From Candidatus Binatia bacterium (GTDB lineage: Bacteria > Desulfobacterota > Binatia > Bin18): a DNA stretch of 64,000 nucleotides. The notes below the pieces were generated by a model. The model was given only the letters and a program-made list of their open reading frames with translations. It ran no database searches and was not told where the DNA came from. This document shows, in pieces, positions 59,589 through 64,000 of the stretch. The position numbers and the translations under genes are program-made. The DNA is taken from positions 4,064,001 through 4,128,000 of the forward strand of contig OY761159.2 in assembly GCA_963664395.2 (NCBI GenBank), given 5' to 3'. Every line of letters begins with the position of its first letter. Positions within the stretch are counted from its first letter, which is position 1.

Positions 59589-61226
59589 CTAGAAATCGTG
59601 GGCCCGATGCGCACCGTACATCCATTCGAAGCCGAGCCAGACGGTCTGCGCGTCGTTCTTGAGGTGGCTGGCAGTATCGTAGTTGTACTGGAGCCGGATG
59701 CGTGAAAACTCGGACGGTCGCCAGACCAGCAAGGGAGAGAGACGGTGCCGGTCATCCCGGAACGGGTCGTTCTGGCGTCCGCCGATGCTGTGTCCGCTAC
59801 CGCCGGCGTACTCATAGCGCAGGCCGGCGGCCCAGTTGGTCTGAAACCCGTACAAAAGCTGGGTATACAGGCCCCAGTCCTTGAACGCGCGGCCCGGCAG
59901 GCTGTCGAGGTCGCCGTCGTCGGCTGCCTGGGTGTAGCGGGTTGCGTGATAGTCGCGTTTCATGACCTCGGTCTGCCAGGTCAGGAACGGAGAGCCGAAA
60001 TTGCCGCCCGGCTGCCAGCGCCACTTCATGTCCAGCCCGTACAGCCAGGTGTCGGCATCCCGCCCGGTTGCGTTCGGCCCGTACAGGCCGGACAGGCCGA
60101 ACACCGCGGTCACTTCGTCGGTGAATTCGAACGAGTTCTCCCAACGGGTCAGATAGACGAAATCTCCAAAGCCGCGCACGTCCTGAGCGACAATCGGGCG
60201 GCCGGCTATACCGTTGCCCTGGCTGCCTTCCGCGTGGTCATCTTCTTCCTCGGCGTGATTGTCTTCTCCCTCGGCATGATCGTCTTCCTCTTCGTCCATA
60301 TGCTCGTCGTGCTCGTCACCGTGGCTATGGGCCAATTCTCCGCCCAGAAAGCTGGCCATGGTCACGCCATTGGCATTCTGCATACCGAAGTGAAACTCGG
60401 AGAACCACGGCGTGGGCGGGAGCCACGAGGCCCGAAAACCGGCCTGCCGCATGCCGTCTCCGCCGAACATGCGGGAGTTGACAACCGGTTGATCGACCCA
60501 ATCCCAGGCGTGGGGGTGTTGCGGGTTGATCATCCCGAACTCGGTCAGAAAATGGCCAACCTCAAGCTGAAGACCGTAAGGCAGGGCCGACGAGGTGAGA
60601 AAGGCTTCTTCAAGTTCGACCGCAGTCTTGCCGGTGCTTGGATTGACCGCGGTGAGGACATGCGCCTCGCCGGTGAAGTAGGGGTCAATGGCACCGGCCA
60701 GAGAAATTTCGGCCTGACCCAAGGTGAAGCCACGTTGTTTCGGGTCGTGACCCCCGCCCTGCAGCGTCGAAATCGCGGCGTCCCGCTCGCTGGAGCCGCC
60801 GGCAAAGAACAGAACATCGGTCGAAATGTCAATGAGGCGTAACTGCGTGTTCCCGCCCAGCGGCTGTGACCACAGCGCCCGCCGGTCCGGCTCTGGCTCA
60901 AAATCCGGGACGCCGAGTTCGTCAAGCGCTTTGTCCAGGGGCGAGGCGACTCGGCCGGCCATGCTTTCAGCCTGGCGTCGCTGTATGGCCTGCACTTGCG
61001 CCTCTTGCTCCTCGACCTGTTGCTTGAGGGCTTGATCCCGTGAGTTCGACTCTTTTTGCATTTGTAAAAGGAGTCGCTGGAGTTGCTCGACAGTTTCCTG
61101 CAGGCGGTCAACCTGACTGCGGAGTGCTTGGACCTCATCCGAGTCGCTGGCCTGTGCGCTGGTGTCTGGCTGGGATAAAAAAATGGAGACGACCGAGATG
61201 AAAAAAATGCGGATTATGCCACGCAT
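59589..61226 (-). CDS. outer-membrane beta-barrel (zinc-uptake-associated porin/receptor) with His/acidic insert
   Basis: Signal peptide, coiled coil, GGGHDP, IDPYF, LEEAF, N.QHPHAWDWVDQP, PSEFSRIRLQYN, terminal GAH.AH.F. Confidence 0.8.
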   Translation of the reverse strand: MRGIIRIFFISVVSIFLSQPDTSAQASDSDEVQALRSQVDRLQETVEQLQRLLLQMQKESNSRDQALKQQVEEQEAQVQAIQRRQAESMAGRVASPLDKALDELGVPDFEPEPDRRALWSQPLGGNTQLRLIDISTDVLFFAGGSSERDAAISTLQGGGHDPKQRGFTLGQAEISLAGAIDPYFTGEAHVLTAVNPSTGKTAVELEEAFLTSSALPYGLQLEVGHFLTEFGMINPQHPHAWDWVDQPVVNSRMFGGDGMRQAGFRASWLPPTPWFSEFHFGMQNANGVTMASFLGGELAHSHGDEHDEHMDEEEDDHAEGEDNHAEEEDDHAEGSQGNGIAGRPIVAQDVRGFGDFVYLTRWENSFEFTDEVTAVFGLSGLYGPNATGRDADTWLYGLDMKWRWQPGGNFGSPFLTWQTEVMKRDYHATRYTQAADDGDLDSLPGRAFKDWGLYTQLLYGFQTNWAAGLRYEYAGGSGHSIGGRQNDPFRDDRHRLSPLLVWRPSEFSRIRLQYNYDTASHLKNDAQTVWLGFEWMYGAHRAHDF

Positions 61227-61239
61227 ATGATTTCCTCTG

Positions 61240-61256
61240 TTGCATAGTAGTTGTAA
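61240..61256. promoter_or_regulatory. putative Zur/Fur box
   Basis: ttgcatagtagttgtaa, an imperfect TGCAA-N5-TTGCA-type inverted repeat just upstream of the porin start; minus-strand TTGACA at 61287-61292. Confidence 0.55.
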
Positions 61257-61383
61257 TAGAAACATAATTGGATAAAGGTGCGGGGTTGTCAAGCCGACAC
61301 CCTTCCGGTGTCCGTTGTAGGAATGGACGTGAGGTACTTTTTTCTTGCCGGAAGTCATAGAAATCGGTAAGATGGGCAGCGCT

Positions 61384-61830
61384 ATGAAAAAGGAAAGAAC
61401 CGTTCGGTCAATAGCAGAGCTACGCACCCTGATTCGATCTACTGGGCTGCGTAGCACAGGTCCCCGGGTTGCTGTTTTGCAGCGGCTTCAGCAGGCGACG
61501 ACTCCTATGAGCCATGCGGAGACCGCCGAAGCTCTGGAGCCGGCGGGCTTGGACCGGGCGACGCTCTATCGGAATCTCATTGACCTCACCGACACCGGTC
61601 TCTTGTCGCGAACGGATCACGGCGATCACGTCTGGCGTTTTGAACTGCGTGACACTGCGCACGGCCAGATCGAAAAACATCCCCATTTTACCTGTATTGA
61701 CTGTGGCGAGGTCGAGTGTCTGCCCGATACGAGCATCGAGGTATCCGCACCGCGCCGCTCGCCCCGCGCGATCAAAAAACACCATTTCGAAGTACAGCTC
61801 ACCGGCCTGTGCGACCGCTGCGCGGCCTAG
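61384..61830 (+). CDS. Fur family regulator (probably Zur)
   Basis: GLRST.PR.AVL, DRATLYRNL, HPHFTCIDCG, GLCDRC; divergent from the metal uptake operon. Confidence 0.88.
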   Translation: MKKERTVRSIAELRTLIRSTGLRSTGPRVAVLQRLQQATTPMSHAETAEALEPAGLDRATLYRNLIDLTDTGLLSRTDHGDHVWRFELRDTAHGQIEKHPHFTCIDCGEVECLPDTSIEVSAPRRSPRAIKKHHFEVQLTGLCDRCAA

Positions 61831-61945: not shown

Positions 61946-63547
61946 CTATACGCCGTGCCGGTCGCGAAGAATGGTCGCGGCCTGTGTGATGGCTGTCAGT
62001 TTTTGTTCGGCAAGCGTAGCTGACGCGATCGGATTATCTGCAAACGTGGCAAAACCGCAGTCCGGCGTCAGGAGTAGACGCTCGGCTCCAAAGAGAGTGA
62101 CCGCTTTTTCCGCTTTAGCGACAATCTGCTCGACCGTCTCAAGGCTTTGCGTCTTTTGATTCACCACCCCAATGCCGATGCGCCGGTCGTCCGGCAGGCC
62201 GCGCAGCACGGCCTCATCGCCAGCCCGAGGCGTGCAGAGTTCCAGCAGGAGCGTACCAACCTTGACGTTTTTCAAGAGAGGCAGCAGCGGCCGGTAGTCG
62301 CCGGCCAGGGCCACGCTTTCATCCGGGGTCCAGTTGCCGCGACAGATGTGCAGCGCCAGCCGTTCTTGCGGCAAGTCGGCGACCACCTGATTAATGAGCG
62401 ATTCGGCAAAGACCAATTCCTCCGCGGCCTCACGCTTCTCTCCCAGCGCGCCACACATAAACGTGCGATTATTTGATGTACCGCTAAAGACGACCTCGGT
62501 CAGGACCGGCTCGTCCAATTGAACCAGCGAGACACCCGCGGCGAGCAGGGAGTAGAGTTCCTCGCGTAGGACCCGAACGACATCCGTGGCGAGTTCTTCC
62601 CGCGTGTCATAGGCCCGGTCGGAGATGCATTCCATCCACATCGTGCGGGTGAGGAGATAGGGGCCGGGCAGGGCGACCTTGAGTGGCCGGTCGGTCAGGC
62701 TGGCAAGAAAAGTTGCCTCGTGAACGGCCAGCGAGCGGCTGCGACCCAGCGGGCCAAACACCGCCGGATGGCGGATTTTGCCGGCCGGGACATCGAGTGC
62801 ACGCAGCTCACGCTCGAATTCTTCGGGGTCATCGACATACGGCAGCAGGTCGGTAATCGGAATCAACTGGCAGTTGTCGAGCAGCCCGCCCACGAAGCTG
62901 GCGTAATTGTCCCGACGCTGCTCACCGTCTGTGAGTACGTCTACCCCGGCCCGTTGTTGGGCGGCGACCGCCAGCCGCACGGCGTCGTCCGCGGTTTGGC
63001 CAAACTCTTCATCTGACATGCGGCCTTCGAGATGATCGTTGAGGGCGCGTAACAGCCAGGGTGGCCGCGGCCAACTCCCGACGCCCATGACAGACAGGGG
63101 GGCAATGGTCGGGGCCGGGGCCGGCTGCGGAAGGCGGTCGGGAATCACGACTTCGGCGATGGGTTGGGTAATCGGTGCGTATTCCTTTTCGTGCGTTGAG
63201 CCATTGCGTGCTGAACGTTGTTTCGCCTTCTTCTTTTTCAACTTTGGCTGAACGGGTGGCTCCGGTTCCACGGAGCGCAGGTTCGCTGCCGGGCCTTTCG
63301 AGACCAGAAAACTGTTCTGCTTGCCCTGGCTGATGTGGGATACCAAGTCGTTTCCGGTCAGCCGACACCAGGCCGGTAGGTCTTCGACGACCGACGTTTC
63401 GGTGGACAGGATTTCGAGCAGTTGGCCTGGAGCAAGGGGGTCGATATGCTTGCGGATCAGTAATAACAGGCCATTGCCACAGTCGAGGTCCCCGCCGTCG
63501 AAACTGTCTATCGGTTGGTATGGGTGCGTCTGCGTATCGGCAGCCAT
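61946..63547 (-). CDS. TusA/SirA-like domain fused to cobalamin-independent methionine synthase II (MetE C-terminal-like) domain
   Basis: N-terminal FDGGDLDCG..EDLPAWCRLTGN; VGSWPRP, TDGEQRR, QLDEP, Zn ligands HIC, E, PDCGF. Confidence 0.88.
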   Translation of the reverse strand: MAADTQTHPYQPIDSFDGGDLDCGNGLLLLIRKHIDPLAPGQLLEILSTETSVVEDLPAWCRLTGNDLVSHISQGKQNSFLVSKGPAANLRSVEPEPPVQPKLKKKKAKQRSARNGSTHEKEYAPITQPIAEVVIPDRLPQPAPAPTIAPLSVMGVGSWPRPPWLLRALNDHLEGRMSDEEFGQTADDAVRLAVAAQQRAGVDVLTDGEQRRDNYASFVGGLLDNCQLIPITDLLPYVDDPEEFERELRALDVPAGKIRHPAVFGPLGRSRSLAVHEATFLASLTDRPLKVALPGPYLLTRTMWMECISDRAYDTREELATDVVRVLREELYSLLAAGVSLVQLDEPVLTEVVFSGTSNNRTFMCGALGEKREAAEELVFAESLINQVVADLPQERLALHICRGNWTPDESVALAGDYRPLLPLLKNVKVGTLLLELCTPRAGDEAVLRGLPDDRRIGIGVVNQKTQSLETVEQIVAKAEKAVTLFGAERLLLTPDCGFATFADNPIASATLAEQKLTAITQAATILRDRHGV

Positions 63548-63568
63548 GCTTTTCCCCATGCTCCGTTT

Positions 63569-63601
63569 CCCTCTCCCTCTGGGAGAGGGCCAGGGTGAGG
63601 G
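63569..63601 (+). repeat. REP-like element ccctctccctctgggagagggccagggtgaggg
   Basis: Same family as 29660, 44808, 44950. Confidence 0.8.
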
Positions 63602-63628
63602 TCTTTCTTAATGGAGTGAGAGTCTTCC

Positions 63629-63991
63629 CTAATACGACACGCTCGGCGTCCCGCCGGCCAGAAATTCGACCAGTTTGGCGCCGCCAACAATCTTGGCCCC
63701 CGGAACAAGGTTGTTCTCATCCAGACCGCGTTTCTTAAAGCACGGCGAGCACACATATATCGTACCGTCGGCTTCGGCAAAATTGGTCATCAGTTCTTTG
63801 AGCGGCGCAAAGCCGTCCTCATGCATATCGTCGGCATAGCCGCCAACGGCCAAACGCACGCCCTCGGTGCTCAAGAAGACCAGGGTTTCCTGGTCCGAGC
63901 CCAGCGCGGCGTTGGCAATCACAAAGGCGACGGTTGCCTTGTCGGTATTATCCTTTGCGTGGGTCAGTGAGACGCAGAATTGTCCTGCCAT
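63629..63991 (-). CDS. DsrE/DsrF-like family protein
   Basis: DKATVAF..ANAA, VFLSTEGVRL, IYVCSPCFKKRGL, GA.IVGGA. Confidence 0.88.
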   Translation of the reverse strand: MAGQFCVSLTHAKDNTDKATVAFVIANAALGSDQETLVFLSTEGVRLAVGGYADDMHEDGFAPLKELMTNFAEADGTIYVCSPCFKKRGLDENNLVPGAKIVGGAKLVEFLAGGTPSVSY

Positions 63992-64000
63992 AGTGGGTCC

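Follow-up and report, generated by a model that had tools for sequence, protein, structure and literature searches.

A TusA-like carrier domain fused to a core MetE-type zinc enzyme and encoded with a DsrE-like protein in Candidatus Binatia: a predicted cysteine relay for sulfur or selenium

What does an enzyme of the MetE family do when a sulfur-carrier domain is tethered to its N-terminus and a DsrE-like protein is encoded just ahead of it? This question is raised by two genes at the end of a 64,000-nt stretch of the Candidatus Binatia bacterium genome GCA_963664395.2 (the window; positions 4064001-4128000 of contig C1 of this assembly, G000, which is 95.9% complete). The open reading frame (ORF) list places the fusion gene at 61946..63559 on the minus strand, where it encodes a protein of 537 amino acids (aa). 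Together with the dsrE-like gene it represents the Binatia form, two genes out of three, of a widespread module composed of a tusA-like gene, a dsrE-like gene (with CxxC) and tusA::core-metE. The feature is real and strongly conserved and, judged from sequence, combines known kinds of component, a core MetE-family enzyme and a TusA/DsrE relay; its function is predicted. The parts of the locus are as follows.

63629..63991, minus strand: dsrE-like gene, first of the operon, 120 aa (ORF list and Pfam)
63560..63628, no strand: 69-nt spacer between dsrE and the fusion gene, with a REP-like palindrome inside
63290..63511, minus strand: TusA-like carrier domain of the fusion, residues 17-90 (Pfam TusA and PDB TusA match)
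63110..63289, minus strand: Lys/Pro-rich flexible linker, residues 91-150 (variable in alignment; low model confidence)
61946..63109, minus strand: predicted single-barrel MetE-like (MesD-like) zinc domain, residues 151-537 plus stop (Pfam Meth_synt_2 and 3RPD)
61345..61830, plus strand: convergent Fur-family regulator gene, context only (Pfam FUR, 48.9 bits)

A preliminary description of the window had named both reading frames, the DsrE-like protein, the variant TusA-like domain, the linker and the single MetE-like barrel with an HxC/E/C zinc site and an additional FMCGAL cysteine; ORF, Pfam and motif analysis confirmed all of these parts.

Domains and active site of the two proteins

The domain composition of the fusion protein was examined using Pfam. 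TusA (PF01206) matched residues 32-88 with 32.5 bits (cut-off 28.6), and Meth_synt_2 (PF01717) matched with an E value of 2.9e-27 and 96.3 bits (cut-off 21). Meth_synt_1 (PF08267) stayed under its cut-off (19.5 versus 27 bits), and the enzyme part is therefore a single barrel. The carrier domain also matched the PDB TusA structures 3LVJ/1DCJ (E 5.5e-4), and its AlphaFold model has the beta-alpha-beta-alpha-beta-beta order of the TusA-type alpha/beta fold. A Pfam score above the gathering threshold and a conserved N-terminal cysteine (C27) place it in the TusA/SirA family, but the CPxP motif of that family is absent: the translation reads DLDC27GNG at this position, the fused domains in general read C27-G-N/S-G and the free copies C-G-E/D-L. 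A second cysteine, C65, lies in PAWC65. The linker (residues 91-150) varies in length and sequence (alignment A1) and was modelled as disordered, with a predicted local distance difference test (pLDDT) score below 50 for residues 97-123. The AlphaFold2 (AF2) model of the whole protein had a mean pLDDT of 80.8 and a predicted template modelling score (pTM) of 0.73.

The AF2 model and a Foldseek search showed that the enzyme part has the (beta-alpha)8 barrel of the MetE C-terminal half. The top solved match was 3RPD (Foldseek E 2.3e-21, TMt 0.79, 26% identity), followed by MetE C-terminal barrels. The same structure was found by sequence (HMMER E 8.8e-27, 97.4 bits), with the GS, DGEQ, DEP, HxC, LE and CG motifs lined up. 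These correspond to GS162WPRP, DGE213Q, LD349EP, H404-I-C406, E440-L-C442 and PDC501GF in the translation, which also contains MWMEC311I and FMC369GAL. The zinc ligands of the family are His-x-Cys, Glu and Cys (E. coli H641, C643, E665 and C726), and the predicted ligands of the fusion protein are H404, C406, E440 and C501, aligned to HIC, LE and NCG of 3RPD. The homocysteine/methionine triad of Ser, Glu and Asp (E. coli S433, E484 and D599) is represented by S162, E213 and D349, which align to Ser22, Glu73 and Asp188 of 3RPD; the accessible text of Price et al. (2021; PMC7857596) names these three as methionine-binding residues. All seven residues of the zinc site and the triad were invariant in an alignment of 56 sequences, as were C311 and C369, and C442 was kept in at least 90%. 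By these residues, the barrel is predicted to be able to hold a homocysteine-type amino acid.

The cysteines outside the zinc site were also analyzed. C369 belongs to an inserted segment that links the DEP strand to the HxC strand and is longer than its counterpart in 3RPD; the C369 loop may lie over the zinc site. In comparison with known core methionine synthases, the fusion protein appears to have gained the tethered TusA-like domain, the active-site loop cysteine C369, and C311 and C442. A census of 80 loci from other genomes showed that C27 was present in 79/79, C65 in 75/80, C311, C369, C406 and C501 in 80/80, and C442 in 71/80.

The 120-aa protein matched DsrE (PF02635) with an E value of 1.7e-15 and 57.7 bits (cut-off 22.7). 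Its AF2 model (pLDDT 95.9) matched 3MC3 (TM 0.86), YchN 1JX7 (0.75), DsrE 2HY5_A (0.76) and TusD 2D1P_A (0.77) in Foldseek, so that both the Pfam match and the fold are those of the DsrE/DsrF/YchN family. It carries C81-x-x-C84 in VC81SPC84FKKRGL (VCSPCFKKR, nt 63740-63751), and both cysteines were kept in 74/74 orthologues. The gene begins at 63991, and a strong ribosome-binding site, AAAGGAGGA, precedes the ATG by 6 nt.

Relatives of the fusion protein were found inside and outside G000. A protein atlas search returned only the fusion's own family. G000 contains nine loci with single-barrel Meth_synt_2 proteins (for example C1:3635954-3636943 and C1:4175366-4176346), which are 24-34% identical to the fusion core; nine core-MetE paralogues in one genome is an unusually large family. 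In P0130, a divergent fused relative (503 aa, 48% identical, alignment A4), the TusA domain and C27 are kept, but the zinc ligands (HxC, Glu and Cys) are missing and so is the FMC cysteine; P0130 may represent a side branch without catalytic activity.

Spread and gene linkage of the module

A word-indexed protein search scored 8000 proteins, of which 5890 reached E <=1e-3. The best 120 had identities of 63-98%, lengths of 498-575 aa and, in most cases, both Pfam domains. In one-genome-per-species data, at least 547 stretches were confirmed out of 562 pattern matches, and the best 80 of them made up the locus census. Among these best 80 loci, the fusion proteins of Candidatus Binatia relatives were 88-92% identical to that of G000; the other carriers belonged to Actinomycetota, Burkholderiales (Duganella, Paraburkholderia and Polynucleobacter), Planctomycetota (Saltatorellus ferox), Bdellovibrionales, Rokubacteria, Terriglobia and Mycobacteriales. 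When 201 Burkholderiales genomes were sampled evenly, seven carried the fusion gene; such a patchy distribution is what an accessory trait would show. The operon census includes five loci of genomes flagged as unpublished (L031, L033, L034, L043 and L078); L078 serves as the example for the ATPase and for the second DsrE, and L034 as the example for two neighbour proteins, and no conclusion rests on unpublished genomes alone.

Loss of the fusion or of its linkage to dsrE in other genomes had been set beforehand as a ground for giving up the idea of a joint system. The data showed that the N-terminal TusA domain was fused in 80/80 loci and that a dsrE-like gene, whose product was 66-98% identical, lay upstream on the same strand in 74/80. 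Five of the six loci without it have the fusion gene within about 1.7 kb of a contig end; L073 does not. This gene arrangement is far beyond chance, and the domains, conserved residues, gene linkage and taxonomic spread of the module were all observed directly. A free TusA-like gene (D-x-x-C-G-E/D-L) was found just upstream of dsrE in 59/80 loci. Further members are less regular: an HtxB-like ABC importer in or beside the operon (14/80), a second DsrE-like gene (8/80) and a 128-aa protein without a Pfam match (4/80). The Binatia-type loci L020-L030 and L065, and also L058, have no free TusA in cis. The free TusA-like copy of G000 is encoded 156 kb away at C1:4283443-4284093 on the minus strand (L106:3443-4093). 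It is fused to a Cys-rich N-terminal stretch (CxxC...C...CxxC) that is also seen in the Terriglobia locus L085 (6608-7225), and a DUF5942 membrane protein is encoded downstream of it.

The nearest unfused barrel relatives are of the P0129 type (391 aa, 44% identical, FMC cysteine kept). In 80 metagenome loci of this type, a DsrE-like gene was nearby in none and a TusA-like gene in one, and the tie to carrier proteins is therefore specific to the fused family. No further universal partner was found among 136 neighbour proteins of 25 diverse loci. Recurrent neighbours with thiol or sulfur chemistry were a redoxin (L085), an FAD disulfide oxidoreductase with a glutathione S-transferase (GST; L055), a ThiH-like radical-SAM enzyme (L038 and L048), a TudS-like protein (L062), a thioesterase (L086), and a cystathionine-beta-synthase-like (PALP-CBS) enzyme together with SelD (L068, L104 and L105). 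Two loci (L032:7985-9124 and L080:8064-9221) each have one in-frame stop inside the core domain, aligned to D318 and E350, and are either broken copies or assembly errors.

A predicted relay and its alternatives

We examined whether the enzyme could be an ordinary methionine synthase. All 10 NCBIfam methionine-synthase models scored under cut-off on the fusion protein; the best was NF003317 (158.7 versus 406), and MetE models gave 75.5 versus 541 and 69.4 versus 929.95. MetH was present in G000 and in 75/80 carrier genomes (30/30 and 45/50 further ones), the five without it being assemblies of unknown completeness. Two-domain MetE was missing in 23/30 carrier genomes, in which MetH was present, and MetH and MetE were both found in 7/30. 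No cobalamin or SAM riboswitch was detected in 19 loci, where Rfam at gathering thresholds returned three tRNAs only, and no gene for a methyl-donor protein was conserved in the module among the 136 neighbour proteins. The MetH tally, like that of SelD below, includes genomes flagged as unpublished (G056, G232, G234, G235, G242, G267, G280, G297, G327, G361, G367, G399 and G427). The earlier proposal that the module does something other than ordinary methionine synthesis fits the sub-cut-off scores, the prevalence of MetH and the lack of riboswitches in these loci.

Because of the same three results, we tentatively favour a reading in which the module is a cysteine relay whose cargo is sulfur or selenium and whose end point is a zinc site of the homocysteine type. 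A sulfane sulfur or selenium atom would be picked up on cysteines and passed from the free TusA-like protein to the DsrE CxxC, from there to C27 of the tethered TusA domain and on to the C369 loop, where the chalcogen would encounter a homocysteine-type amino acid bound by the zinc domain. A chalcogen (S/Se) bond on this amino acid would then be formed or resolved; carrier-bound S/Se could, for example, be turned into (seleno)homocysteine or a persulfide of it. The enzyme would not be a free-standing methyl-transferring methionine synthase. We infer the direction, the cargo and the reaction of this relay. In its favour are the gene linkage and the constraint on the carrier cysteines, the intact zinc site and triad, the near absence of carrier genes beside the unfused relatives, the position of the operon opposite the homocysteine genes metY, metX and metW in G000, the thiol and redox neighbours at other loci and the precedent of YedF.

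Known relays were compared with the module. YedF has a SirA/TusA domain and a DsrE domain with CGXC and co-occurs with SelD, according to the accessible text of Lin et al. (2015; PMC5322559). The module resembles YedF in pairing a TusA-like unit with a CxxC DsrE-like unit, mostly in SelD-containing genomes, and differs from it (TIGR03527) in that the units are separate genes, the TusA has CG(N/E)G or CGEL in place of CPXP, the DsrE CxxC is CSPC and a MetE-like enzyme is attached. No YedF model was among the NCBIfam matches of either protein. The DsrE3/TusA and DsrEFH/TusBCD relays use the same two folds and pass sulfur species from cysteine to cysteine, but they feed sulfur oxidation or tRNA thiolation. 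DsrE3A-TusA of Metallosphaera is reportedly an example of the former relay. The DsrE proteins of known relays have a single active cysteine, in contrast to the CxxC here, and we know of no DsrE/TusA relay that ends in a MetE-type enzyme. Carrier-bound sulfur also builds a sulfur amino acid in CysO-CysM and HcyS-MetY. This likeness is an analogy of working only, since those systems use ubiquitin-like thiocarboxylates and enzymes dependent on pyridoxal phosphate (PLP), whereas TusA/DsrE cysteines and a zinc barrel are found here.

Several observations weigh against the relay. The intact homocysteine triad and the MesD-type closest structure fit a true methionine synthase equally well, and the C369 loop was modelled with low confidence (pLDDT <50 for residues 361-372). 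No selenocysteine was found at a conserved cysteine in 160 loci, which covered C27, C65, C311, C369, C406, C442, C501 and the DsrE CxxC in 80 loci and the FMC cysteine in 80 unfused relatives. Synteny with the metY, metX and metW genes beside the operon was seen in only 11/80 loci, all close Binatia relatives, and is therefore taken as a single evolutionary event. Proteins with TusA-like and DsrE-like folds have roles other than transfer as well, and a regulatory or protective role is possible. A literature search gave no biochemical or genetic datum for any member of the module.

A link of the module to selenium was examined using SelD (TIGR00476, above cut-off) as a marker of selenium use. 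SelD was present in 82/86 carrier genomes (31/31, 48/50 and 3/5 new Burkholderiales carriers), and a recheck of the four without it found a SelD fragment in one. The background is itself high: 157/201 Burkholderiales genomes and 110/151 genomes of the phylum of carrier G023 have SelD (73-78%). The pooled odds ratio was 6.5 with a naive p of 8e-6, uncorrected for kinship and with a second background that may itself hold carriers. In the even Burkholderiales sample, SelD was found in 5/7 carriers and 152/194 others, which is not significant. Selenium as an exclusive marker of the module was rejected on account of this high background and the lack of significance in the even sample, and the selenium link of the module is modest. 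In one Burkholderiales lineage (L068, L104 and L105), no more than about 3 kb separates selD from the fusion gene, and the cystathionine-beta-synthase-like gene accompanies it. G000 contains SelA (596 bits); SelU was not found in this genome. The SelD of G000 (C1:4506291-4507208, minus strand) lies in a 759-aa open frame, and the frames of Binatia relatives are 759-775 aa long, which indicates that SelD of these genomes is fused to another domain.

HtxB-like binding proteins are encoded in the operon of Duganella callida (L095) and at 13 other loci. The Duganella protein (L095:4494-5375) is close to HtxB 5ME4 (E 2.2e-84), keeps W52 of HtxB, and has Ser and His at HtxB N128 and F158. By the accessible text of Bisson et al. 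(2017; PMC5700983), Ser and His are the residues by which PtxB binds the third oxygen of phosphite, and the protein matches a "hybrid" class that is uncharacterised there. A site shaped for a pyramidal XO3 anion would accommodate phosphite and, by analogy, might take selenite or sulfite. An NCBIfam "putative selenate" binding-protein model of the same superfamily matched the L095 protein weakly (74.6 versus 250 bits). Selenium is a live possibility as cargo, on a par with sulfur. That the module is a dedicated selenium-assimilation pathway we consider unlikely. In such a pathway, and in lineages with the in-operon ABC importer, the hybrid HtxB/PtxB-type protein would serve to import selenite or another pyramidal XO3 anion, and the DsrE CxxC and TusA cysteines would catch it as a selenotrisulfide or perselenide. 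The tethered TusA domain would then present the selenium to the zinc/homocysteine-type site, where selenohomocysteine would be made without free selenide, or the selenium would be passed to SelD.

The strongest competitor of the relay, though in our judgement a rather improbable one, holds that the enzyme is a true core methionine synthase which needs no cobalamin, forms a fifth "Mes" type and serves as backup to MetH. TusA/DsrE would then take the part of MesX: they would supply or carry the methyl group, or maintain the zinc-thiolate site of aerobes in reduced form. Among solved structures, the MesD-type 3RPD is the nearest relative (E 8.8e-27; TMt 0.79), and the accessible text of Price et al. 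(2021; PMC7857596) describes for MesD/MesX the same single MetE-type barrel without the folate-binding half, the H-x-C, E, C zinc site with the S/E/D triad, a dedicated partner encoded alongside and the usual presence of MetH, with which MesD coexists in 75% of cases. The zinc ligands and triad are intact in the fusion protein, a B12-independent backup would be useful to the 23/30 carriers that have MetH without two-domain MetE, and in G000 the operon is divergent from metYXW. On the other side, identity to 3RPD is 26%, and the partners here are TusA-like and DsrE-like, with a fused TusA domain and three extra cysteines besides. Thresholds for MesD in the same text are about 55% identity and 390 bits, or 560 bits, against ACIAD3523; the fusion protein falls short with 26% identity and 97.4 bits, measured against 3RPD in place of ACIAD3523. 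MesX (DUF1852, PF08908) had no match in G000, but it had none in 14 control genomes either, and none was seen among the 136 neighbour proteins. Likeness to two-barrel MetE extends to the catalytic barrel fold and the zinc-thiolate site, while the N-terminal Meth_synt_1 barrel that binds methyl-folate is lacking, identity is 17-19% and scores are far under the curated cut-offs. MetH occurs in 75/80 carriers, whereas 22% of MesD hosts have no other synthase according to Price et al. (2021; PMC7857596), and 7/30 carriers already hold both MetH and MetE. No cobalamin or SAM riboswitch was found in the 19 loci, and every curated methionine-synthase cut-off was missed. A methyl-transferring role would leave four or five conserved cysteine proteins superfluous. 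A cysteine thioether is not known as an activated methyl donor.

Two other explanations assign the zinc barrel or the carriers a different part. A salvage or dealkylation enzyme, whose zinc site would bind methionine, selenomethionine or a related thio- or seleno-ether and whose cysteine relay would accept S or Se for reuse (for example selenium to SelD), falls under the earlier proposal that a thioether is made or broken. It could draw on the crystallisation of 3RPD with selenomethionine in the same pocket (PDB title, and the accessible text of Price et al., 2021; PMC7857596), on SelD in 82/86 carrier genomes and on the selD and cystathionine-beta-synthase-like genes within about 3 kb in L068, L104 and L105. 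However, 73-78% of background genomes from the same order and phylum have SelD in any case, that neighbourhood belongs to one Burkholderiales lineage, and the module has no gene for a methyl or alkyl acceptor. The reaction would need C-S or C-Se cleavage at an unactivated carbon, for which we know of no precedent in the MetE fold, and we regard this explanation as very unlikely. The carrier domains could instead be regulatory or structural, for instance a redox switch on an ordinary MetE-like paralogue with no transfer at all. The nine single-barrel Meth_synt_2 loci of G000 suggest a fold used for many things, and the TusA motif is without the canonical CPxP; yet the carrier cysteines are invariant across phyla (C27 79/79, DsrE CxxC 74/74), the operon retains two or three carrier genes as separate units, and some lineages have an ABC importer and a second DsrE inside it. 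We hold a purely regulatory or structural role to be highly improbable.

Operon start, flanking genes and significance

The region around the operon start was analyzed past the window end. A promoter scan found a TTGTCT-17-TATGAT site just outside the window (window-equivalent 64032-64060). By itself the scan was at chance (1 found versus 1.0 expected), but the TTG and TATGAT elements were invariant in 10/10 aligned Binatia upstream regions, and this conservation adds weight to the call. The next genes are divergent: metY (TIGR01326, 647.5 bits versus 495.1), metX (NF001209, 526.2 versus 331) and metW (PF07021), and they share a 164-nt control region with the operon. The preliminary description had expected the operon to continue past position 64000; the strong ribosome-binding site, the conserved promoter and the divergent metY-metX-metW genes place its start at the window end instead. 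Metw is followed by a PNP_UDP_1 phosphorylase gene. Past both, at L009:7310-9385 (window-equivalent 68309-70384), two small Phd/YefM-like ORFs precede or follow a 562-aa ORF; judged from the translations only, the latter resembles a DNA methyltransferase.

On the downstream side, the operon converges on the Fur-family gene, which lies beside ZnuA, ABC_tran and ABC-3 genes (Pfam). The Fur-family protein reached no curated NCBIfam cut-off; that it is Zur is plausible. Of the convergent zinc-uptake regulator named in the preliminary description, the Fur-family gene beside ZnuA/ABC/ABC-3 genes was found, and a functional tie was not supported, the synteny being limited to 9/81 loci, all close relatives. 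Taken as a whole, the interpretation in that description held for the domains, the conserved linkage and the departure from ordinary methionine synthesis, and was not supported for the operon past the window and the zinc-regulator tie; persulfide sulfur as the cargo and a thioether as what is made or broken stand as predictions. Between the Fur-family and ZnuA/ABC/ABC-3 genes, 59589-61457 on the minus strand encodes a 622-aa protein without a Pfam match that has a His/Asp/Glu-rich stretch, HDEHMDEEEDDHAEGEDNHAEEEDDHAEG; it may be a metal-binding outer-membrane or periplasmic component.

The spacer between dsrE and the fusion gene contains a REP-like palindrome with the core CCCTCTCCCAGAGGGAGAGGG at about 63560-63611. 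A 1-kb query gave 26 genome matches, of which 25 were short matches to this element, and a similar palindrome was seen in the dsrE-metY spacer of relatives. Contigs of four RNA-library runs from two studies cover most of both genes at >=95% likeness. Their depth is in the thousands at the REP-like element, where they break, and none bridges both genes; these contigs cannot show transcription or co-transcription.

A full-text literature search, whose reach stopped short of the supplementary tables of Price et al. (2021) and Lin et al. (2015), returned no description of the module, and the words TusA, SirA and DsrE are absent from the main text of Price et al. (2021; PMC7857596). The core (folate-independent) MetE-like enzymes are acknowledged to pose an open problem, with neither the methyl source of MesD nor the roles of many single-barrel paralogues settled. 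Because the family described here is large, strongly constrained (>=63% identity across phyla) and tied to carrier proteins, the module would mark a reaction that present maps of sulfur and selenium amino-acid metabolism lack. Direct tests are within reach, as non-pathogenic carriers are in culture (Duganella species and Saltatorellus ferox). If the relay reading is true, this would be the first TusA/DsrE relay that ends in a MetE-type zinc site and would provide a protein-bound route to or from homocysteine; the selenium pathway, if true, would let selenium enter metabolism by a new enzymatic step and would give the MetE fold a new role.

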